A program made the position numbers and the translations under genes. From Mollicutes bacterium (GTDB lineage Bacteria; Bacillota_I; Bacilli_A; RF39; UBA660), in the NCBI GenBank assembly GCA_012520055.1, contig JAAYPA010000020.1, positions 1 through 62,227 on the forward strand: a stretch of DNA of 62,227 bases, read 5' to 3'. Shown piece by piece: positions 2,810 through 59,723 of the stretch (its first letter is position 1; each line of letters opens with the position of its first letter). The notes under the pieces are model-generated. The model was given only the letters and a program-made list of their open reading frames with translations. It was not told the origin of the DNA and searched no databases.

Positions 2810-3736
2810 GTGAATACTAAAACTTGTGCGCTTATTTATAATCCAAATAGTGGTCATATTTTAAAGCCAAGATATATAAAAGAATATAAGAAAATATTAA
2901 TTAAAAGCGGATATGACCCTCGCATACTTGGAACACAATATGCCGGACATGCCAAAGAAATTGTCAGTCATTTAGATAAAGTTGATTTGGTAATCTCTAT
3001 GGGTGGCGATGGGACTTTTAATGAAGTAATGAGCGGAAATTTTGAACGTAAAGACCGCTTAATACTTGCTCATATACCTGTTGGTACAACTAATGATATA
3101 GGTGTTATGTTCGGTTATGGTAAAGACATGAAACAAAATTTAAAAGATCTACTAGATGGCGTAGTAAAAGGAATGGATGTATGTTTAATTAATGGTAGAC
3201 CATTCGTATATGTTGCAGGGTTTGGGAAGTTTTTAAATGTTGCTTATGAAACACCTAGAGCTCTGAAAAAGAAATATGGTAAAATTGCTTATGCAATAGA
3301 AGGTTTTAAAGATTTTTTAAGACCAACCAAATTATATAATATTACATATCGTATTAATGGTATAGAAAAAAAAGGCTATTATTCATTTATGCTTATTTCT
3401 AATGCCAATCGAATCGCTGGTATTAATAATTTTTATAAGGACATCAAACTAGATGATGATCAATTTGAAGTATTATTTTGTAATTTTAAAAGAAGAATTG
3501 ATATTTTAAGAACTTTTAGTGTTTTACTCACTACCGATATTACTAAAGTATCAGGCTTAGAATTTTATCGAGCCAATAAATTAGAAGTTATTTTTGACAA
3601 CTATCCAAAAAAAGCTTGGTGTATAGATGGAGAAAAATTGGATAGAGCTGTTTTAAAATATGAAATTACTAATGAAAGAAATGTCCAAATAATGCTTCCA
3701 AAAAAGAACATAGATAAAATATTTGCAAATAAATAG
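2810..3736 (+). CDS. dagK: Diacylglycerol/lipid kinase (DagK / YegS / BmrU family)
   Basis: N-terminal 'ALIYNPNSG' and the 'GGDGTFNEV' motif. SD 'aaggtga' precedes GTG 2810, and the track start 2801 is 3 codons upstream. Confidence 0.85.
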   Translation: MNTKTCALIYNPNSGHILKPRYIKEYKKILIKSGYDPRILGTQYAGHAKEIVSHLDKVDLVISMGGDGTFNEVMSGNFERKDRLILAHIPVGTTNDIGVMFGYGKDMKQNLKDLLDGVVKGMDVCLINGRPFVYVAGFGKFLNVAYETPRALKKKYGKIAYAIEGFKDFLRPTKLYNITYRINGIEKKGYYSFMLISNANRIAGINNFYKDIKLDDDQFEVLFCNFKRRIDILRTFSVLLTTDITKVSGLEFYRANKLEVIFDNYPKKAWCIDGEKLDRAVLKYEITNERNVQIMLPKKNIDKIFANK

Positions 3737-3765
3737 AAAACAAAATCATGAGATTTTGTTTTTTT
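3737..3765 (+). terminator. Intrinsic terminator, copy 1 of a repeated palindrome
   Basis: 11-bp stem aaaacaaaatc/gattttgtttt, loop atga, T-run. The same stem recurs at 4008-4032. Confidence 0.75.
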
Positions 3766-3807
3766 AAAATTAGTGATATAATAAAATACATTTAAGGGTG
3801 GTTTTAT

Positions 3808-4002
3808 ATGTTAGTAGAAGAATATAATAGTATGCATAAAGCCGGTTCTAGAGGACCGTTAGAAAAATATTTTAAAACTAAAACATTACAAAGATTAAAA
3901 GGAAAGGGTCTTTTTTGTGGAATGGATTTTGTAGGAATTCCGGAAATGAGGCCTAAATATAAATATACAAGATTAGATCATTCAAAAACACTAAAATTAT
4001 AA
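3808..4002 (+). pseudogene. N-terminal relic of an HD-domain phosphohydrolase-like gene (64 codons only)
   Basis: 'LQRLKGKGLFCGMDFVGIPEMRPKYKYTRLDHS' resembles the start of HD-domain proteins (RL..I.Q.G....P....TR.EHS). The ORF stops just after the first HD element. Confidence 0.35.
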
Positions 4003-4007
4003 ATTAA

Positions 4008-4036
4008 AAAACAAAATCTATGATTTTGTTTTTTTA
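4008..4036. terminator. Bidirectional terminator, copy 2 of the repeated palindrome
   Basis: Same 11-bp stem aaaacaaaatc/gattttgtttt, loop tat. The yfhO stop codon (4018-4020) overlaps the stem-loop junction. Confidence 0.7.
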
Positions 4037-6570
4037 ATTTTACGACTTGATAAAGCTATGAAAGTTATAAGTGACACTGCACTGATGATACTACCAACTA
4101 CTATTCCTTTTGACTTAAATTTTAATTCGATAGTATTTTCTCCTGATTTAATATCAAATGCTAGAAGAGCATTACCAATTTTATAAGTTTCAATTTCTTC
4201 ACCATTGACTTTAACTTTCCAACCTTCGTCATAAGGTATAGAAGTATATAAAACACTATCTTTTTCAAGAGTAATATTTCCTTTAATATAATTTTCTGTA
4301 AAATCAGTAATATTAACTGAGTTATTAACTAACATGTTAGCCGCTTGTTCAAAATTTGTATTATTAATGGTGTATCCATAGAAACTATCTTTAGTATAGT
4401 TATTATATCCAACATATATACTATATTCTTTATCTTCAGTACGAGTATTTATAATATACTTTTCTCCAAAACTGATATAATCAAAAACTTCGATATCTTC
4501 ACTGGCTTCTTTGTAATAATCAATAAAGTCTTCCATAAAGTACATAGTGTCATTAACAATTATAAAGTCAATATCCGGGCTATTAATGTAGAAGTACATA
4601 TTATCTTTTACATTTTTATAAGTATACTTAATTACTTTTTTTGCATAATCATAAACTTTTTCAATTTTATTAGGAACCAGTTTTACTAAAGACTCCGGTA
4701 TCGAGCTGGCTTTTTCCATAAAGTCTTTTTGAATAAATAAAGGATCATCACTATTGTAATTCCATGATTTAATATCATTATTAATAGCAAACATTAACCC
4801 GGCATTATATTTGTTTTTAAAGACAATAACATCATCTTCATTGTAATAAAGTTCATATCTTTTAATGTCCCATGTATCACCGATAAAATATTTAATATTA
4901 AACATTAAGTCATAAATTGGGGTATTTTGTTTATAATAATAACTGTTTATTTTATTTCCCGGCATTGCCAGTTTATTTTGAAGATGGGCCATATTTTCAT
5001 AGGCCATTGAACTAAAAGTAGTTTGTCCATAATAGTTATACCAAGAAGGATCATTAAAGGTTAATATTTGTGTTCTTTCAATTCGATACATTTTAGATGA
5101 CTCATTTAATTTAACATATTCAAGAGCATTTTCCGTTTTATAATAATCAGAATAAAAATCATCAATATGTTGAAATATACTCCAATTATGATTTATAGAA
5201 ATAATTATTTCTGACATAGTTAAGATAATGAATAGACCAATAGTATATTTTTTAATGTTAGGAAAATTTTGATAAATTAAATAAAGAACAAAATATAAAG
5301 TTAGTACAACAAAATTTAAAAGAATCATTTGTTTGGCAATATTACCATATTTTAAAAAATATAATAACCCTATAAATATTAAATTTAGGAAGTACACAAT
5401 ACTAACATAGCGTATTTTCAATTCTTTTAAGTAATATAATGAATATCCAGCAATAATTACAAATACAAAGGAATATATAAATGAGTAACGGTATGGTAAA
5501 TCATTTGGAACATGAAAGGCATGCCATATAAAATCAAAAGGGGCATAAAAGAAACTTAAAATAAATATAAAAATTAAACTTAAGTAAAAAATTTTAATTT
5601 TTAGTTTAATTTTAGGATTAATTATAAACAATAATAATAGGGCAATTGTTAAAATACCGGTTGAAATGTTAGCTGCATTAGATATGCCTGATTTAAATAC
5701 TGTTCGATATATTCCGGTAAAATGATTACCTAAATATTCCCAAAAAGTAAAAGCATAATACTGACTGGTTGGCCAAGAATCCGATGTAGCACTAATTGAT
5801 TTGATACTTAAAAATAATGGGATTAAAAATAAGGCAGCAATTCCTCCGGCCAGTATTGAAGCTCCGGTAAATATTAATCCTTTTTTGATAATTACTTTAA
5901 CCTTTTTTTCTTTAATAAGAAGATAACCAATAAAATATATAACTGAAAATAAACATATCATATAACCTATAAAATAGTTAGCAATTAACATAATAGCTAA
6001 ACTAATAGTATATAAATAAAATTTATTTTCATTAACTATATTTTCAATACCTAATACAATCATTGGTAAAAATACCATACCATCCAACCACATTATGTTC
6101 CAATAGTAAGCGGTAAAATAAGCACAAAATCCATATAGCAAAGCTAGAGGTATAAAACAAAGACTTTTAATATTAAATTTTTTCTTAAAGAAATATACTA
6201 ATGTTACCGAAGACATAACTGCTTTTAGACCAATAATAAATGAAAATGATGTCAGTAAGTTATTTCGGTCAAATAAGAAAATAATAATATTAAAAGGACT
6301 TGATAAATAATTTAAAAAATTCCTGATAAAAGGAAGACCCATTCCCATCGAAAAAGAATATATTAAATTTGAACCATTTTTTATTCGATCAAAAAGTTCT
6401 CCAAGCATAGGTCCATATTGATGAAAGAAATCTACAGTTAATAAAGAATTCTTCCCATATGGAGACACATCTTGTAATATGTAGATAGCCGAAATGACTA
6501 TTAAACCACACAAAAAAGTAGTATAAACCAGTAAATTATTTTTAAAATGTTTTTTAACTCTAGTTAGCAT
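4018..6570 (-). CDS. yfhO: YfhO-family polytopic membrane glycosyltransferase
   Basis: About 850 aa with many TM helices followed by a soluble C-terminal domain and a final TM. SD 'aggtga' lies before ATG 6570, and the track start 6663 adds 31 unsupported codons. Confidence 0.75.
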   Translation of the reverse strand: MLTRVKKHFKNNLLVYTTFLCGLIVISAIYILQDVSPYGKNSLLTVDFFHQYGPMLGELFDRIKNGSNLIYSFSMGMGLPFIRNFLNYLSSPFNIIIFLFDRNNLLTSFSFIIGLKAVMSSVTLVYFFKKKFNIKSLCFIPLALLYGFCAYFTAYYWNIMWLDGMVFLPMIVLGIENIVNENKFYLYTISLAIMLIANYFIGYMICLFSVIYFIGYLLIKEKKVKVIIKKGLIFTGASILAGGIAALFLIPLFLSIKSISATSDSWPTSQYYAFTFWEYLGNHFTGIYRTVFKSGISNAANISTGILTIALLLLFIINPKIKLKIKIFYLSLIFIFILSFFYAPFDFIWHAFHVPNDLPYRYSFIYSFVFVIIAGYSLYYLKELKIRYVSIVYFLNLIFIGLLYFLKYGNIAKQMILLNFVVLTLYFVLYLIYQNFPNIKKYTIGLFIILTMSEIIISINHNWSIFQHIDDFYSDYYKTENALEYVKLNESSKMYRIERTQILTFNDPSWYNYYGQTTFSSMAYENMAHLQNKLAMPGNKINSYYYKQNTPIYDLMFNIKYFIGDTWDIKRYELYYNEDDVIVFKNKYNAGLMFAINNDIKSWNYNSDDPLFIQKDFMEKASSIPESLVKLVPNKIEKVYDYAKKVIKYTYKNVKDNMYFYINSPDIDFIIVNDTMYFMEDFIDYYKEASEDIEVFDYISFGEKYIINTRTEDKEYSIYVGYNNYTKDSFYGYTINNTNFEQAANMLVNNSVNITDFTENYIKGNITLEKDSVLYTSIPYDEGWKVKVNGEEIETYKIGNALLAFDIKSGENTIELKFKSKGIVVGSIISAVSLITFIALSSRKIKKTKS

Positions 6571-8521: not shown

Positions 8522-9061
8522 ATGGAACTAAAGGGAAGCCAAACTGAGAAGAATTTAATGACAGCTTTCTCCGGAGAGAGTGAAGCTAGAAATAAGTATA
8601 CATATTATGCTTCAAAAGCAAAAAAAGATGGTTATGAACAAATAGCAGCCATCTTTGAAGAAACAGCAGGTAATGAAAAAGAACATGCCAAATTATGGTT
8701 TAAACTATTAAAAGGTGGAGATATTCCTTCAACTTTGGATAATTTAAAAGATGCGGCAGCAGGTGAAGATTATGAAGCAACTGAAATGTATGCGGAGTTT
8801 GCCAAAGTAGCTTATGAAGAAGGTTTTGAACAAATTGCCAAACTATTTGAAGGTGTAGCTCAAATAGAAGCACATCATCGTGATCGTTATTTAAAATTAG
8901 TTGGAAATATTGAAAATAATTTAGTATTTCATAAAGGTGAAGAAGTTGTTTGGATTTGTCGTAATTGTGGACATATTTATTATGGAGAAGATGCTTTAAA
9001 AGTATGTCCTGTTTGTTCTCATCCTGAATCATTTATGGAACTAAGATGTGAAAATTATTAA
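8522..9061 (+). CDS. rbr: Rubrerythrin
   Basis: Ferritin-like E..EH motifs plus a C-terminal rubredoxin-like 'CRNCG...CPVCSHP'. Confidence 0.9.
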   Translation: MELKGSQTEKNLMTAFSGESEARNKYTYYASKAKKDGYEQIAAIFEETAGNEKEHAKLWFKLLKGGDIPSTLDNLKDAAAGEDYEATEMYAEFAKVAYEEGFEQIAKLFEGVAQIEAHHRDRYLKLVGNIENNLVFHKGEEVVWICRNCGHIYYGEDALKVCPVCSHPESFMELRCENY

Positions 9062-51529: not shown

Positions 51530-51741
51530 ACAAAACGCAATGAATATATATAGTAATTATAAGTATATATTTAAAGAGAGTAGATATTATTAGCTGAGAG
51601 TATCTATAAATGAGTACATATAATGAAGTTCAATATAGGAGCGTTATTCGCATAATCAGCGTTATTGATTAAAGTGCATGAAATCATGAAGTAAGGTGGT
51701 ACCGCGGGAGTTATCTCGCCCTTATATTTATGATTTTTTTA
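51530..51741 (+). promoter_or_regulatory. T-box leader, Phe specifier (UUC)
   Basis: Conserved T-box sequence 'aaggtggtaccgcg' at 51693-51706, an 'agagag' AG-box-like element, and candidate specifier 'gaa-TTC-a' at 51629-51632. A long helix 51681-51690/51727-51736 is followed by a T-run as terminator. It lies directly upstream of pheS. Confidence 0.8.
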
Positions 51742-52775: not shown

Positions 52776-55112
52776 ATGAAAATATCTTGTAATATATTAA
52801 AGAAACATATTAAAAACAGTGATAAAATTGATTTTTTAAATATTTGGGATAAATTTACCATTCGCAGTGCTGAAGTTGAAGGCATTGAAATTAAAGGTCA
52901 AAACTTTGATAATGTCGTAACAGCTAAAATTATTGAATGTGAAAAACATCCTAAATCAGAAAAATTATCAATCTTAAAAGTTGATACTGGAGAAGAAGTA
53001 TTACAAATTGTTTGTGGTGCTCCCAATGTAAGAGTAGGGCTTATTGGTGCTTTAATCAAAATTGGTGGTCATATTGATGATATTACAATTTCTAAAAGAC
53101 CTCTTGTGGGTATTGATTCTTATGGTATGATGTGTAGTGGAAAAGAACTTGGTATCAGTGATGATCATTCCGGAATCATCGAACTTCCTGAAGATACTCC
53201 GATTGGTATTGATATTAAGAAAATATTACCTATTGAAGATATTATTGTTGAAATTGATAACAAATCTCTTACTCATCGTCCTGATTTATGGGGTCATTAT
53301 GGTATAGCCAGAGAAATAGCTGCAATAACTGGAACAGAGTTATTGCCTTTGGAACTTGCCGATGTTAATTATGATGGTAAAGAATTAAATGTAACAATTG
53401 AAAATCCCGATCTTTGCTATCGTTATACCAGTTTAAAAATTGATAATATTAAAAATAGTAAGACACCTTTATGGATGCAAATATTTTTATATTATGCTGG
53501 AATGAAAAGTATTAACTTAACTGTTGATTTAACAAACTATATTATGCTTGAGTTAGGCCAACCAATGCATGCTTTTGATTCCCGAAAGGTTAATAATATT
53601 GAAATCGGTTTAGCTAAAGCCGGAGATAAATATACTACCTTAGATGGCATTGAAAGAACATTAACTGATCATGACTTAATGATTAAAAATGATAGTAAGT
53701 ATATAGCTATTGCCGGTATTATGGGTGGATTAGACAGTGAAATCATAGATGATACTGACTCTATTATTTTAGAAAGTGCTTGTTTTGAAGCATCTACAGT
53801 TCGTAAAACTGCTATATCTCAAGGCCTACGCACTGAAGCATCTACCCGTTATGAAAAAAGCTTAGATCCAAACTTAACTATCATAGCTTCCAAAAGATTC
53901 TTAAGACTATTAAAAGATGAGAATCCTGATCTTACTTTAGGTTCAGCTCTAACTGATGTTTATCCTAATGAATTTAAAGAAAAAGAAGTTATTTTAAATA
54001 AAAGTTTACTATATAGATACTTTGATTTTGAACTAGAAGATGAAGCTGTTAAACACATTTTAGAATCGTTAGAATTTAAAGTAGAAATAAAAAAAGATTA
54101 CTTTAAAGTTATTGTTCCAACTTTCAGAGCTACTAAAGATGTTACGATAGCTGCTGATTTAATTGAAGAAATTGGTCGGATTTATGGTTATGAAAACTTT
54201 GTACCTAAACCAGTAAAAATGGATTTAAATTTTGTTAAACAAGAACCGGCTTATGATGAAGGTTATATAGTAAAAAACTATTTAGCTACTAAATATAACT
54301 GCCATGAAGTTCATACTTATTTATGGAATAAGACAAGTTTCTTAAAAGAAATTAATATCACAAAAGATAACGTAAAATTACTTGGTAAAAGCGAAGATAA
54401 TATTTTAAGAGATGATTTAAATTTAAGTTTACTTGAAGTAGCTTTTAATAATATTAAATATTATGATGAATTTAATATTATGGAAATCGGTACAATTATT
54501 AAAGATAATGAAAATCATAAGATGTTAAGTATCTTATTATGCGGACCACAAAAAGATTTGAAAAATCTTTATAATAAAGCTAAAGAAATGACTGTTAATA
54601 TCTTAAGAAATTTAAAAAACAAAACACCAATCTTTGATTTTGGATCATCAGAAACTTATTATAATCAAGATTTAATTCAAGATATTATTGTTGATAATAA
54701 TATTATCGGACAAATAAAAACATTTAATAAAAATGTTAATAATAAGATAAGTAAAAAGCATACTTTTGTAGTTTTAGAAATTGACTTTGAAAAATATCTA
54801 AATTTTGATTTAGATAAAACTAATTACCAAGAAATTAGTAAATATCCATCAACTGAACTTGACTATACTATCATCATGAAACGTGGTGAGTATTACGACA
54901 AACTATCTAAAATTTTAGATGAGTTTACTAGCCCGATTATCATAAATCGCAAATTAGTAGATATTTATTTGGAAGAGAAAACTAAAAAAATTACGATAAG
55001 ATATATTGTTGGTTCAAAAGAAAAAACCCTAACAAGTGAAGAGTTACAAAACTTTAAAGATGAATTTATTAAATTCTTAATAAAAAATGAATTGAATATC
55101 GTAAAAGAATAG
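52776..55112 (+). CDS. pheT: Phenylalanine--tRNA ligase beta subunit
   Basis: tRNA-binding N-domain ('HPKSEKLSILKVD'), B3/4, B5 and FDX-ACB domains. Confidence 0.95.
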   Translation: MKISCNILKKHIKNSDKIDFLNIWDKFTIRSAEVEGIEIKGQNFDNVVTAKIIECEKHPKSEKLSILKVDTGEEVLQIVCGAPNVRVGLIGALIKIGGHIDDITISKRPLVGIDSYGMMCSGKELGISDDHSGIIELPEDTPIGIDIKKILPIEDIIVEIDNKSLTHRPDLWGHYGIAREIAAITGTELLPLELADVNYDGKELNVTIENPDLCYRYTSLKIDNIKNSKTPLWMQIFLYYAGMKSINLTVDLTNYIMLELGQPMHAFDSRKVNNIEIGLAKAGDKYTTLDGIERTLTDHDLMIKNDSKYIAIAGIMGGLDSEIIDDTDSIILESACFEASTVRKTAISQGLRTEASTRYEKSLDPNLTIIASKRFLRLLKDENPDLTLGSALTDVYPNEFKEKEVILNKSLLYRYFDFELEDEAVKHILESLEFKVEIKKDYFKVIVPTFRATKDVTIAADLIEEIGRIYGYENFVPKPVKMDLNFVKQEPAYDEGYIVKNYLATKYNCHEVHTYLWNKTSFLKEINITKDNVKLLGKSEDNILRDDLNLSLLEVAFNNIKYYDEFNIMEIGTIIKDNENHKMLSILLCGPQKDLKNLYNKAKEMTVNILRNLKNKTPIFDFGSSETYYNQDLIQDIIVDNNIIGQIKTFNKNVNNKISKKHTFVVLEIDFEKYLNFDLDKTNYQEISKYPSTELDYTIIMKRGEYYDKLSKILDEFTSPIIINRKLVDIYLEEKTKKITIRYIVGSKEKTLTSEELQNFKDEFIKFLIKNELNIVKE

Positions 55113-55147
55113 TGATAAAATAAATATGTATTTAGGAGAGATTTATT

Positions 55148-55606
55148 TTGAAAAAAGAAAAACCTACTTGGAAAGATTGACCAACTATAATCAATAAAAT
55201 ACCAGAAGATGATACATTATTGTTTTTTATAGACGAAAGTGGTGAAGGTACACTAAGAAAAATTAACCAAGCTTTTGTTGAGAAAGATGAAAATAAAGAA
55301 TTCAGTCAAAGACATGATATATATATTTTAAATGGAATAACTATAACTGGTAAAAATCATTATTATCTTCAGAATAATTTAAATAAAATTAAAAGAAAAT
55401 TATACGAAAACATAAAAGCAGTTTACTTTAGAAAAAAGTGGACTCAATTAAAAAATGGGAAATGTATTACTACTTCGGGTATTGAGTTAGCTGATTTAAC
55501 AATATCTCCTATAAGAAGAATTTTACATGCAGAATATTTAATTATCGAAAGTAAATTTTTACAATATCCTTTTTATAGAAATAGAGGATTATCATTTATA
55601 GAATAA
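55148..55606 (+). pseudogene. DUF3800-like gene interrupted by an in-frame TGA and apparently shortened
   Basis: SD aggag lies 9 nt before TTG 55148. It reads 'LKKEKPTWKD' then TGA (55178-55180) then 'PTIINKIPEDDTLLFFIDESGEG...GIELADLTISPIRR'. The 'DESG' and 'ADL' elements are typical of DUF3800. Confidence 0.5.
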
Positions 55607-55644
55607 AAAAAGCAATTATAGATTAAATTGCTTTTTTATTTTTA

Positions 55645-55773
55645 AAAAATAACCCCACCTCTAAGAGTGGGTCGGCGGCATAAAGCAGGCCTACGTAATT
55701 AGAAAGGAGGTGAATAATAATGTTGAAAGAACATTAATTTTCACTCTCATATCCATGGAATAATCCATGGACA
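55645..55773 (-). ncRNA. Candidate small RNA (about 130 nt) containing a 14-nt copy of the 16S rRNA 3' tail
   Basis: Minus-strand promoter (see next feature). A 5' hairpin uccaugga-uuau-uccaugga and a second hairpin uaauguu-cuuuc-aacauua. A single-stranded 'UCACCUCCUUUCUA' and a GC-rich 3' hairpin cccac(u)cu-uag-ag(g)uggg followed by a U-run at about 55645. Confidence 0.4.
55752..55771. repeat. Perfect palindrome TCCATGGA-ataa-TCCATGGA
   Basis: Read directly. It could be the 5' hairpin of the candidate sRNA or an operator for the adjacent HTH protein. Confidence 0.8.
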
Positions 55774-55778
55774 CTTAT

Positions 55779-55807
55779 ATTATATGCATTTTGGCATAAA
55801 AAATCAA
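55779..55807 (-). promoter_or_regulatory. Sigma-A-type promoter for the candidate sRNA
   Basis: On the minus strand: TTGATT (55807-55802), 17-nt spacer, TATAAT (55784-55779). Confidence 0.5.
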
Positions 55808-55880
55808 GAAAAATAAAAAGCTTTACTTTTGTTAGTTAATAAGTTAGAATATAATTAGAATAATATTAACAGGTGATAAT

Positions 55881-56843
55881 ATGAGAAAAACCGTTGGTGA
55901 TAACTTAAAACTATTTAGAATTAGATCAGGATTTTCAATGGCTGCTGCCGGTGAAGCTTTGAGTATTTCGGCTCCTGCTATCTTAAAATATGAAAGAAAT
56001 CAAATTATTGCTTCATTAGAAAGATTACAAGACTTTGCTAATCTTTATAATGTTACGATTGAAGATATTCTTGATGTTGAAGAAACTATTGATATTAAGT
56101 TTATGAATTTTAAATGTCATAATCGAGTTTCCGATATTAGAAAAATTAAGATCAAAGATTTAATTACTATTAAAATTGAAGCATATTTTCATTTATTAAA
56201 ATTAGCCGATATTACCTATCAAAATAAATTTGGTGTCCATATGGTTAATACTTTAGAGGAAGCAGAAAGTTTAGCTACTAAATTAAGAATTTTCTTTACG
56301 ATTCCTCTAAAAGATCCTATATCTAATTTAGTTTATTTATTAGAAAACAATAATATTATGATTATTACATTACCTAAGAATAAAGTGACAGAAGGTTTTA
56401 TTGGTTATTATGAGATAATCAATAATGTTCCGATTATTGTAGTTCCTCAGGCAGAAAACAGTTATGAACAACGTTATAGTATTGCTAAGTATTTAGGTGA
56501 ACTTTTAATTGTTAATAATACAAAAAAAGATCTTCTTACTACTCAGTTTGCTTTGTCTTTACTTATTCCAAAAACAGCTTTATTAGAAGAATTTGATGAC
56601 AAGAGAGTTAAGATAGATTTTAGAGAAATAGAAATCTTCAGTAATAATTACCGGGTAAGCTATAAACATATAGTTCAAAGATTAAAAGATAGTCATATTA
56701 TTACTCCAAGTAATGCTAAATATTTAAACATTCATATTAATAAAAATAATATAAAAGAAAATGAATATTATGAAGTACCTTATGTTTACGATAAATTAAA
56801 AGCTAAGCTTAGTGCTAAAGGTATATTAAAAGTAAGGAAGTGA
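55881..56843 (+). CDS. XRE-family HTH fused to an ImmA/IrrE (M78)-like domain lacking the HExxH motif
   Basis: HTH 'FSMAAAGEALSISAPAILKYERNQ'. The C-terminal 'EQRYSIAKYLGELL...QFALSLLIPKTAL' aligns to the 'R.RFT.AHELGH...FA..LLMP' pattern, with KYLGE in place of HELGH. Confidence 0.65.
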   Translation: MRKTVGDNLKLFRIRSGFSMAAAGEALSISAPAILKYERNQIIASLERLQDFANLYNVTIEDILDVEETIDIKFMNFKCHNRVSDIRKIKIKDLITIKIEAYFHLLKLADITYQNKFGVHMVNTLEEAESLATKLRIFFTIPLKDPISNLVYLLENNNIMIITLPKNKVTEGFIGYYEIINNVPIIVVPQAENSYEQRYSIAKYLGELLIVNNTKKDLLTTQFALSLLIPKTALLEEFDDKRVKIDFREIEIFSNNYRVSYKHIVQRLKDSHIITPSNAKYLNIHINKNNIKENEYYEVPYVYDKLKAKLSAKGILKVRK

Positions 56844-57653: not shown

Positions 57654-59723
57654 ATGAATTATCTAGACAATCTAAACGAAGAACAAAAGAAGGCAGTAAC
57701 TCATAAAGATGGACCGGTTTTAGTTATGGCTGGAGCCGGAAGTGGAAAGACAAAAGTACTGACCACCCGTATTGTCCATTTAATAAAAGAAGGAATACCT
57801 AATCACAATATTTTGGCAATAACTTTTACAAATAAAGCTGCTAATGAAATGAGAAGCAGAGTATATAATATGATAGGTGATGTATCAGCATTTATTGGTA
57901 CTTTTCACTCTTTTGGTTTAAGAATAATCAGAGAAAATTATGAGGAGTTAAATTTAACCAGTAATTTTACGATTATCGATAGTGATGATTGTTTAACAGT
58001 AATTAAAAAGATATTAAAAGAAAAAAACTTAGATCCTAAGCAATATAGTCCATATTATATTAGGAACAGAATCAGTTTTATTAAAAATCAAATGCTTAGT
58101 GATATTGAATTAGAAAGATTATTTAATACTCCGATTGATAAAGTTGTCGTAGAAATATATAAATCATATTGTGCAAAATTAATTGCTAATTCCAGTGTAG
58201 ACTTTGATGATTTATTATTATTGCCTGTTAATCTTTTTATGAAAAATAAAATGATTTTAGATTATTATCAAGAAAAATATAAATATATTTTAATAGATGA
58301 GTATCAAGATACTAATCCGGTTCAATATAAATTATCAGTGTTATTATCGGGTAAATATAAAAATATTTTTGTAGTCGGTGATATAAATCAAAGTATCTAT
58401 GCTTTTAGACAAGCTGACTACCGTAATATTATTAACTTTGAAAATGATTTTAAGGATTGTAAGGTAATTAAACTTGAACATAATTATCGAAGTACCAATA
58501 CTATTTTAAGTGCCGCTAACGAAGTTATTAAGAATAATAAAGAAAGAGTAGATTTAGATCTTTATTCAGAAAAAGGTGAAGGAGTTAAAATCAAATACTT
58601 TCGCAGTTATGATGAAAAACATGAAATAGGTTTGGTAATAGATGAAATAAATGATTTAATCAATAAAGGCAATAAATACAGTGATGTAGCAGTTTTATAT
58701 CGTACCAATGCTCAAGCCAGAGTAATCGAAGAAGTATTTTTAAGTAAAGGTGTGCCTTGTAAAGTTGTAGGTAGTTACTTCTTTATTGATCGTAAAGAAA
58801 TTAAAGATTTAATTGCTTATTTAAGATTAATATATAATCAAGATGATGAAATAAGTTTAAGAAGAGTTATCAACGTACCTAAAAGAGGTATTGGAGAAGC
58901 TGCTCTTAGAACTTTGGAAGATGTAGCTAAAGAAAAAAATACCAATATGTTTGAAGCTTTATCAAGCAGAAAGGAATTAGAATTTAAAGAAATTATCTTA
59001 AAATTAAAGGAGATAAGTGAAAATTCCAGTTTAACTGATCTAATTGATTCTATTTTAGAATTATCGGGTATGAAGCGTGAACTAGAATCATCTAAATCCT
59101 TAGATGATGAAATAAGACTGGAAAACTTACAAGAATTTAAAAGTATTACCGCTTCATATGAAGAAAGAACCGGTTCAGTTAATTTAGGAGACTTCTTAGA
59201 AGAAATAACATTAATAAGTGATGTATCCAACCATAAAAGTGATGGTGAAGAAGTTACTTTAATGACTTTACATAGTGCTAAAGGATTGGAATTTAAAATA
59301 GTTTTCTTAGTAGGTATGGAAGAAGGATTATTTCCTCATAATATGTCTATCATGGAAGATAATCTGGAAGAAGAAAGAAGATTATGCTATGTCGGTATAA
59401 CCAGAGCAAAAGAAAGATTATATTTAACTAATGCCAAAAGAAGAATGCTTTATGGTAAAGAACAACAAAATATGCCATCTAGATTTATTACAGAAATAAA
59501 TGCTAAACACTTAGAGCAAAACTTTGAAGAACCTAAGATTATCAATAAAGAAAATATGTATACCGATGCTAATGAAGATATTAATGAAGGATCTATCATT
59601 AGTCATGATGTCCATGGTACCGGTGTAGTAGTAAAAGATGAAGGTAATTTAATTGAAGTAGCTTTCAAATCGGGAGTAAAAAAATTACTTAAAAATCATA
59701 AAAGTATTAAAAAAGTTATGTAA
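57654..59723 (+). CDS. pcrA: ATP-dependent DNA helicase PcrA (UvrD family)
   Basis: 'LNEEQKKAV', 'AGAGSGKT', 'DEYQDTN', 'TLHSAKGLEF', 'YVGITRAKE'. Confidence 0.95.
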   Translation: MNYLDNLNEEQKKAVTHKDGPVLVMAGAGSGKTKVLTTRIVHLIKEGIPNHNILAITFTNKAANEMRSRVYNMIGDVSAFIGTFHSFGLRIIRENYEELNLTSNFTIIDSDDCLTVIKKILKEKNLDPKQYSPYYIRNRISFIKNQMLSDIELERLFNTPIDKVVVEIYKSYCAKLIANSSVDFDDLLLLPVNLFMKNKMILDYYQEKYKYILIDEYQDTNPVQYKLSVLLSGKYKNIFVVGDINQSIYAFRQADYRNIINFENDFKDCKVIKLEHNYRSTNTILSAANEVIKNNKERVDLDLYSEKGEGVKIKYFRSYDEKHEIGLVIDEINDLINKGNKYSDVAVLYRTNAQARVIEEVFLSKGVPCKVVGSYFFIDRKEIKDLIAYLRLIYNQDDEISLRRVINVPKRGIGEAALRTLEDVAKEKNTNMFEALSSRKELEFKEIILKLKEISENSSLTDLIDSILELSGMKRELESSKSLDDEIRLENLQEFKSITASYEERTGSVNLGDFLEEITLISDVSNHKSDGEEVTLMTLHSAKGLEFKIVFLVGMEEGLFPHNMSIMEDNLEEERRLCYVGITRAKERLYLTNAKRRMLYGKEQQNMPSRFITEINAKHLEQNFEEPKIINKENMYTDANEDINEGSIISHDVHGTGVVVKDEGNLIEVAFKSGVKKLLKNHKSIKKVM

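Follow-up and report, generated by a model that had tools for sequence, protein, structure and literature searches.

A predicted structured RNA of uncultured Bacillota is linked to DUF3800 genes in a putative mobile two-gene module

The window analyzed here, positions 1 to 62,227 of contig JAAYPA010000020.1 (62,227 nucleotides (nt); assembly GCA_012520055.1, Mollicutes bacterium of the RF39/UBA660 lineage), carries on its minus strand a predicted non-coding RNA of about 130 nt next to the remains of a DUF3800 gene. Comparison across related genomes indicates that this element belongs to a conserved family of structured RNAs, predicted to be transcribed independently, and that the RNA and DUF3800 genes together form what appears to be a mobile two-gene module, inserted at this site and unrelated to the neighboring helix-turn-helix (HTH) gene. 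As a plausible if still tentative reading of its function, we propose that the stand-alone RNA acts in trans by binding and restraining the RNase HII-like DUF3800 protein, in the manner of an antitoxin. An original prediction, made from the sequence of the window alone, had instead described a small RNA (sRNA) that presents an anti-Shine-Dalgarno (anti-SD) sequence and is divergently transcribed from an HTH regulator.

Results

The RNA gene comprises a promoter, four helices (P1 to P4), the last of which is an intrinsic terminator, and is separated by a further hairpin from the convergent DUF3800 gene. Its features, in coordinates of the window, are as follows.

55644..55775, minus strand: predicted ~130-nt non-coding RNA, a DUF3800-associated structured sRNA (covariance model 112.3 bits, E = 5.8e-20, full length)
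55779..55807, minus strand: sigma-A-type promoter, TTGATT (-35), 17-nt spacer, TATAAT (-10), score 10/12
55749..55774, minus strand: P1, hairpin at the 5' end, UGUCCAUGGA / UCCAUGGAUA with loop UUAU; folds, with compensatory changes
55707..55748, minus strand: P2, long helix of a purine-rich 5' arm GAGAGUGAA and a pyrimidine-rich 3' arm UUCACCUC around a variable 7-bp hairpin; folds, with covarying arms
55700..55713, minus strand: 14-nt block UCACCUCCUUUCUA, an exact match to the Bacillus-type 16S 3' tail, forming the 3' arm of P2 and the junction to P3
55674..55699, minus strand: nearly invariant junction UUACGUA and P3 core hairpin (GGC, internal loop, GC, loop UUUAU, GC, C, GCC); paired 100% in 11/11 sequences
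55644..55671, minus strand: P4, intrinsic terminator, stem CCCACU/GGUGGG (55671-55654) followed by GUUAUUUUUU; kept in all variants
55607..55636, unstranded: AT-rich hairpin with A- and T-runs on either side, read as a bidirectional terminator, between the RNA gene and the convergent DUF3800 gene
55148..55606, plus strand: DUF3800-family pseudogene, the partner of the RNA (Pfam DUF3800 match of 18.9 bits on the relic)

Within the 1.5 kb scanned (55000-56500), the top promoter-like site is TTGATT-17-TATAAT, the same minus-strand sigma-A promoter that had been predicted (55807..55779, 10/12), and the start of the RNA is predicted at about 55772-55775. The 131-nt RNA has a fold energy of -43.6 kcal/mol (z = -6.2 versus dinucleotide shuffles) and a GC content of 0.41, versus about 0.2-0.3 in the flanks. 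It is not, as first thought, the sole GC-enriched non-coding patch of the window, since the tRNA gene at 2533-2603 and the T-box leader at 51531-51726 (97.1 bits, upstream of pheS) are also GC-rich. All three hairpins of the original prediction were recovered: the perfect 8-bp core of P1, UCCAUGGA-UUAU-UCCAUGGA, lies at 55752-55771 and extends to 11 bp in the minimum-free-energy fold, the second hairpin, of 7 bp, is nested inside the longer helix P2, and the GC-rich hairpin with its tail corresponds to P4.

Eleven distinct variants of the RNA were found in uncultured AT-rich Bacillota (loci other than the window are designated by L numbers), and each of them, when folded alone, adopts the P1-P4 architecture. 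A covariance model built from nine sequences recovered all copies with scores of 81-128 bits, in addition to an unseeded divergent copy in L023 (3723-3838, 55 bits). In the model alignment of the 11 sequences, which is fitted to the model structure and in which P1 of L029 is still misaligned, 87.6% of cells are standard pairs and 14 of the 31 pairs show changes on both sides; none of 500 shuffles reached the observed covariation, and slid-partner controls were 42-49% paired. Direct MAFFT alignment misplaced P1 of L029 as well as P2, which uses two different registers among the variants. Hence, the covariance-model alignment was relied upon together with the per-sequence folds and with a test of cognate versus non-cognate arm pairing. 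RNAalifold independently recovered P1, P3 and P4.

All four helices show compensatory change. In P1, double changes occur at 4 of 8 pairs, a C-G pair of the window is U-A in L001, the loop is of the GNRA type in five variants, and cognate arms pair at -9.4 kcal/mol versus -4.0 kcal/mol for non-cognate ones. The arms of P2 covary (GUGAA/UUCAC, AUGAA/UUCAU, GAAAGAAUGA/UCAUUUUUUC, UGAAAUAAUGA/UCAUUAUUUCA; cognate -7.6 versus non-cognate -5.1 kcal/mol), and its interior, only 54% identical between the window and L001, forms its hairpin nonetheless. P3 has two compensatory pairs (GC:8 / CG:2 / AU:1 and AU:7 / CG:4) and occurs with P3a as GGC/GCC, GCC/GGC (L029, L035) or GAC/GUC (upstream copy of L023) and P3b as GC/GC or GA/UC, while its flanks (UUACGUAGGC ... 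CCGCCGAC) are invariant; the invariant core of the RNA as a whole reads UUACGUAGGC...CCGCCGACCCAC. In P4, CCCAC/GUGGG is replaced by CUCAC/GUGAG in L026. The segment spanning P3 and P4 (55645-55693) is 98% identical between the window and L001, versus ~85% for the flanking genes. Upstream of these helices, the promoter arrangement TTGA(Y)W, 17/18 nt, TATAAT/TATACT is found at a fixed distance from P1 in all variants. The RNA was assigned to the minus strand because the conserved promoter and terminator lie there and because ~26 G.U cells would become A.C mismatches on the opposite strand. The structured sRNA with a promoter and terminator of its own that had been predicted is thereby borne out with covariation in 11 variants, and, judged by sequence comparison, the minus-strand element is a conserved and independently transcribed structured RNA family with a predicted transcript.

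The absence of a plausible open reading frame (ORF) from the minus strand, noted for the window, extends to the variants. Minus-strand ORFs there comprise 8-32 codons with differing frame and stop, and in L017, L021 and L023 they are absent or run through the terminator. A small hydrophobic peptide appeared attractive from the window and L001 alone, where a 19-amino-acid (aa) ORF of equal length is present (MRVKINVLSTLLFTSFLIT versus MRGIIIVFIYILVTSFLIT), and was discarded because no frame is conserved in more variants. On the plus strand, the complement of the 14-nt block is a perfect Shine-Dalgarno (SD) sequence with an ATG 8-9 nt downstream in the window, L001, L015 and L021. The plus-strand ORF measures 5 aa in the window and L028, 14 in L001, 35 in L015, 42 in L014 and 22 in L021, is hydrophobic in L015, L014 and L021, and is reduced to 2-9 aa or absent in L017, L023 and L026, with different frames being used over conserved bases. 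An SD-led type I toxin on this strand was rejected because the frame, length and presence of the ORF vary among variants, and a type I toxin-antitoxin system was rejected because neither strand encodes a conserved small toxin. The explanation of the locus as a small-protein gene, encoding either a 19-27-aa hydrophobic minus-strand peptide or a plus-strand SD-led toxin with an antisense RNA antitoxin, can point to the equal-length ORFs of the window and L001, to the plus-strand SD and ATG of four variants and to the hydrophobic ORFs. Given that ORFs on both strands are unconserved in frame, length and presence, that the plus-strand ORF has 5 aa in L028 despite an intact DUF3800 gene, that no plus-strand promoter is evident and that chance hydrophobic ORFs are expected from U-rich sequence, we consider it very improbable.

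In order to identify the partner of the RNA, its occurrence was compared with that of both adjacent genes. Ten orthologues of the HTH(XRE)/M78-like gene were retrieved from species-representative genomes, and only one of these loci, L001 (HTH protein 89% identical, DNA of the region about 87% identical), contains the RNA element. In the nine others (L002-L010), which lack DUF3800, the covariance model detected no RNA copy and only ~60 nt upstream of the HTH start are kept. L007 and L008 have pheT and its terminator directly upstream of the HTH region. The comparison with orthologous loci that lack it therefore defines an insertion of ~700 bp in the window, which separates pheT from the HTH gene and is made up of the DUF3800-like ORF and the RNA gene. 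The divergent switch layout that had been proposed for the RNA and an HTH-ImmA-like gene falls with these nine loci, and partnership with the HTH/M78-like regulator, whether as a switch or as an Rgg/SHP-like peptide pair, was rejected on the same ground. The ~60 nt kept upstream of the HTH start represent the promoter region of the HTH gene itself. The corresponding segment of the window, 55821-55880, is conserved in all 10 orthologous loci (59-89% protein identity) and contains an inverted repeat, GTTAAT...ATTAAC, around a -10 box (TAGAAT), which is probably the operator of the HTH regulator. An exact-protein look-up of the HTH protein returned no record. The metagenome-assembled genomes (MAGs) that supplied L001, L005, L006 and L007 are labelled 'uncultured Muribaculaceae' and carry an AT-rich Bacillota-type T-box/pheST locus; the labels look wrong.

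The other neighbor gave the opposite picture. Homologues of the relic ORF led to contigs with unrelated gene neighborhoods, and a profile search yielded about 60 proteins of roughly 280-296 aa. Contigs were taken for ten DUF3800 protein clusters, whose identity to P0035, the intact allele from the species of the window, ranges from 51% to 37%. The RNA was found beside the DUF3800 gene in 10 of the 10 sampled clusters and in at least 8 genomic contexts, which include pheST/HTH, glycosyltransferase clusters, a two-component system with an ATP-binding cassette (ABC) transporter, sigma factor genes, comEC / M16 peptidases, spoIVA and a methyltransferase / SocA-Panacea island. It is located just downstream of the DUF3800 gene and convergent with it, at about 0-37 nt from the stop codon, except in L029; overall, 10 of the 11 RNA copies are convergent. 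In L029 an IS200/IS605-type Y1 transposase gene (4856-5609; also in L030 and L033) sits exactly between the two genes, which the insertion sequence (IS) holds 754 nt apart, and L035 presents the same neighborhood without it. The IS of L029 also contains an STnc490-like leader (45.7 bits, under the gathering score). In L023, two minus-strand RNA genes (3723-3838 and 4864-4986) flank a single DUF3800 gene, the former lying upstream of it in divergent orientation. The promoters of this pair are identical and P1 is nearly so, while P2 and P3 differ (P3a GAC/GUC versus GGC/GCC), which by its sequence amounts to a natural 'domain swap'. As read from these loci, the RNA and the DUF3800 gene form a mobile two-gene module that was inserted in the window and has no relation to the HTH gene.

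Four of five tested proteins pass the gathering score of Pfam DUF3800 (PF12686) over the whole profile, and an N-terminal DESG motif, along with several other acidic residues, does not vary among 37 sequences. A PDB sequence search with the DUF3800 protein gave no match. An AlphaFold2 model of P0035 (predicted local distance difference test, pLDDT, 87.5; predicted template modeling score, pTM, 0.85) has as its closest structures type 2 RNases H (RNase HII/H2/HIII), led by 1eke (E = 4.9e-4, probability 1.0) and followed by 2dff, 3puf and 2d0a. The protein is thus predicted to have an RNase HII-like fold, in agreement with published statements of an RNase H(2)-like fold for DUF3800 (PMC7736814, PMC10910872). 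The domain has been described as the effector of type VII retrons (PMC7736814), and also occurs as TPR-DUF3800 (tetratricopeptide repeat) proteins beside Cas12a2/a3.

In the window itself the DUF3800 gene is inactivated. L028, from the same species, has a 100% identical RNA gene and an intact DUF3800 gene (283 aa; 4001-4852). Compared with the latter, the gene of the window has gained a TGA at 55178-55180 and lost 393 nt internally and in frame, and it differs by one further substitution (2 mismatches/459 nt); to judge from these differences it is a very recent pseudogene. Related shortened alleles of 152 and 112 aa are present in L012 and L013. DUF3800 is inactivated next to an intact RNA by the deletion in the window, L012 and L013, by decay in L001 and by a frameshift in L015/L016 (two independent assemblies). 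These three inactivations apparently belong to separate lineages and are presumably independent, and at no locus is an intact protein found with a damaged RNA. Between the pheT stop (55112) and the DUF3800 start (55148) there is no terminator (region 55113-55147); the inserted module has taken the place of the pheT terminator present in L007 and L008. In carriers of the module, DUF3800 and the T-box-controlled pheST operon probably share a transcript.

The 14-nt block of P2, on which much of the original prediction rested, is an exact copy of TCACCTCCTTTCTA at 55700-55713 (chance expectation 0.48 matches even with 2 mismatches allowed). The identity stands as a match to the textbook Bacillus-type 16S 3' end, whereas the organism's own 16S gene lies outside the window. 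The sequence on the 5' side of the 14-mer, UUCUUUCAACAUUAUUAU, belongs to the AU-rich interior of P2 and not to helix 45, and a 16S rRNA fragment or pseudogene was discarded, as no small-subunit (SSU) rRNA match was obtained in Rfam scans. The anti-SD-like block (CCUCCUUUCU) is kept at 13-14 of 14 positions in 8 of the 11 variants, including L026, although the protein of that locus is about 47% identical to the window-type protein, and falls to 7-8/14 in L017 and both L023 copies. It is more conserved than its pairing partner in P2, and its persistence in 8 variants whose surrounding helix has diverged indicates that it may have some sequence-specific role. The block is half base-paired in every variant and never fully presented: CACCUC is paired and CUUUCU free in the window, L001, L026, L029 and L035, and CUUUCU is paired with CUC looped out in L014, L015 and L021.

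An RNA that mimics the anti-SD and represses translation by pairing with the SD regions of many mRNAs, or with that of the DUF3800 mRNA, is one further reading of the element, and the exact 14-mer in the window, the retention of 13-14 positions in 8 of 11 variants while the P2 partner arm shifts in sequence and register, which suggests sequence-level constraint, and the half of it predicted to be single-stranded in each variant all speak for this explanation. Three variants, however, lack the block, among them L017, with a protein that shares 70% identity with the one from the block-bearing L014; the CCUCC core is paired in 5 of 8 carriers, with an unpaired probability of about 0.25; and the invariant P3 core would be left unexplained. 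Moreover, the SD regions of DUF3800 genes are ordinary, covariation between them and the RNA was looked for and none was seen, and cognate duplexes of RNA and translation start have no advantage over non-cognate ones (-19.0 versus -20.2 kcal/mol). Specific pairing with the DUF3800 ribosome-binding site was rejected on these last two grounds, and presentation of the anti-SD by the RNA finds no support, the sequence being half-paired everywhere, lost in 3 of 11 variants and without covariation with DUF3800 SD regions. We therefore regard an anti-SD mimic as improbable. In P2, a purine strand resembling an SD sequence is paired to an almost perfect copy of the 16S 3' tail. The helix could mimic, within one molecule, the duplex that SD and anti-SD form on the ribosome, or else the 16S 3' end. 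The RNase HII-like DUF3800 protein would then be a translation-targeting toxin or defense effector that naturally acts on this part of the ribosome or of initiation complexes, and would be titrated by the RNA as a decoy antitoxin. We give this idea only a slim chance; if true, it would provide a function for DUF3800 RNAs and a new class of RNA-decoy toxin-antitoxin systems.

Database searches placed the RNA outside known families. In the window segment 55500-55950, Rfam 15 produced no match above its gathering thresholds, nor any meaningful one at E <= 10, in line with the earlier failure to recognize any named RNA family. The DUF3800-* models of Rfam, all eleven of which are presumably included in that collection, gave no match at E <= 10 in the same segment, in L023 3650-5087 or in L014 5340-5640, and none at E <= 1 in 8 whole loci. 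BLASTN of the element against phage and plasmid collections returned no match. A metagenome scan with a 21-mer from the core found only a chance match in a high-GC contig (L011), and of three exact-pattern scans of viral contigs two were empty and the third gave a chance high-GC match (L034). Elsewhere in L028, at 8586-8685, Rfam n00280 ('C. difficile sRNA included into helicase gene') matches with 58.7 bits (gathering score 65.2) inside the PcrA/UvrD helicase gene, which in the window is pcrA at 57654-59723.

Discussion

The mechanism that we propose starts from an RNA made from its own strong constitutive promoter and ending at its own terminator. This RNA would bind the DUF3800 protein through the invariant P3/junction core and, once bound, would keep the nuclease in check as an antitoxin-like RNA, a logic analogous to that of type III toxin-antitoxin systems and of retron ncRNA-effector pairs. 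The first question is whether the RNA acts in trans or on the convergent gene. Its own promoter and terminator, and bidirectional insulation in most loci, indicate that it most likely acts in trans. The hairpin at 55607..55636 is read from its sequence as insulating the RNA gene from the DUF3800 gene, and equivalent intergenic hairpins were found in 7 of 9 loci with adjacent genes (the window and L028 counted separately, L029 left out for its IS insertion), the two without being L017 and L023. Cis-antisense control akin to type I toxin-antitoxin systems, in which the RNA would base-pair with the 3' ends that read-through adds to DUF3800 mRNA and so bring about degradation of this mRNA, would agree with the convergent orientation of 10 of 11 copies and with the absence of a separate terminator between stop codon and RNA 3' end in L017 and L023 (gaps of 16 and -1 nt). 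The bidirectional terminator hairpins of most loci, the 754-nt IS200-type element between the genes of L029 and the divergent upstream copy of L023 nevertheless argue for action in trans rather than antisense, and four covarying helices with an invariant core would be unnecessary for antisense pairing. We see a small chance for this explanation at the locus, and antisense control as the general mechanism is unlikely on the sequences compared.

The second question is whether the RNA restrains the nuclease or serves it. Nucleases of the RNase H fold (Argonaute, Cas9/Cas12, TnpB/IscB) often use RNAs, and the RNA could accordingly be a required, non-inhibitory subunit of a DUF3800 ribonucleoprotein, acting as a scaffold or as a guide to nucleic-acid targets. 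Strict linkage to the gene and a transcription unit of its own would fit such a cofactor or guide as well, TPR-DUF3800 proteins are found alongside Cas12a2/a3 loci, and the variable P2 interior could carry specificity. The variable segment, however, is an internally paired hairpin that leaves no free guide, no target-like matches were found in phage and plasmid searches that used the whole element rather than P2 alone, and the RNA core is under purifying selection in L001 despite its decayed protein gene, which would be unexpected for a mere cofactor. This explanation is unlikely, though it retains an appreciable chance. The antitoxin-like role, for its part, is suggested by the loss of DUF3800 while the RNA remains intact, as would be expected if a toxin is lost before its antidote, and by the 98% identity of P3 and P4 between the window and L001.

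Several considerations weigh against restraint of the nuclease by the RNA. The transcript, the binding of RNA and protein and the toxicity of DUF3800 are predictions from sequence, and the pair counts derive from the fitted alignment described above. The asymmetry of decay amounts to three events only and would also be explained by a protein-independent function of the RNA, and a cofactor or guide role is possible. The conservation of the 14-nt block in 8 of 11 variants goes beyond what simple protein binding would require, some antisense overlap is possible in L017 and L023, which have no intergenic terminator, and no PADLOC defense model matches the DUF3800 protein.

The RNA has its closest relatives, by gene association, among the RNA motifs reported near DUF3800 genes. 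Weinberg et al. 2017 (PMC5737381) described DUF3800-I followed by ten others (II to XI), two entries of the class in Rfam being RF02969 and RF02968; the eleven structures are mutually dissimilar, several have Rho-independent terminators, both sides of the gene and both orientations are represented, and no function was evident. A search of the available literature for later functional work on DUF3800 RNAs found none. The RNA described here shares with these motifs a covariation-supported structure beside a DUF3800 gene, a Rho-independent terminator and a location on either side of the gene, and differs from them in its own four-helix architecture, its invariant core and the anti-SD-like block. 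Since no Rfam model matches and the class fits by gene association and covariation, it is probably a further, twelfth DUF3800-associated motif, set apart from the published eleven through the Rfam models only.

Other known systems resemble the module in part. Type III toxin-antitoxin systems (ToxIN, CptIN, TenpIN) are likewise small, mobile, scattered modules of a nuclease and a small RNA, and neutralization of the toxin by the RNA is the logic proposed here. Their antitoxins, however, are tandem repeat arrays that precede the gene of an endoribonuclease toxin in the same orientation and are processed by that toxin, whereas the RNA of the window, as read from sequence and folds, is single-copy, non-repetitive, convergent and equipped with its own promoter, and its partner has a predicted RNase HII-like fold. 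Type VII retrons (Mestre et al. 2020, PMC7736814) also couple a DUF3800 RNase H2-like protein to a structured ncRNA, likely as a defense or abortive-infection module, but neither the window nor the related loci contain a reverse transcriptase gene, and no msr/msd match was found in Rfam. RsaE/RoxS-type sRNAs of Bacillota similarly have their own promoter and terminator and a pyrimidine-rich, SD-complementary sequence; they expose C-rich motifs in loops, while the CCUCC of the window RNA lies in a helix and its block is dispensable in 3 of 11 variants, and Rfam gave no match to RsaE or any sRNA family above noise.

For annotation, these results mean that the presumed anti-SD sRNA, thought to form a divergent pair with an HTH regulator, belongs instead to a DUF3800 module inserted at this site. 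The presence of an RNA next to a DUF3800 gene will not surprise specialists, for at least 11 unrelated structures are linked to this gene family and their role has been an open question since 2017. The locus adds a compact RNA architecture to this set, in a minimal module, a ~130-nt RNA with a strong promoter plus a protein of ~285 aa, that makes a good experimental handle. Natural protein 'knock-outs' and a duplicate RNA with swapped P2 and P3 make simple tests possible, and the half-masked sequence resembling the 16S tail is an unusual conserved feature that is open to mutation.

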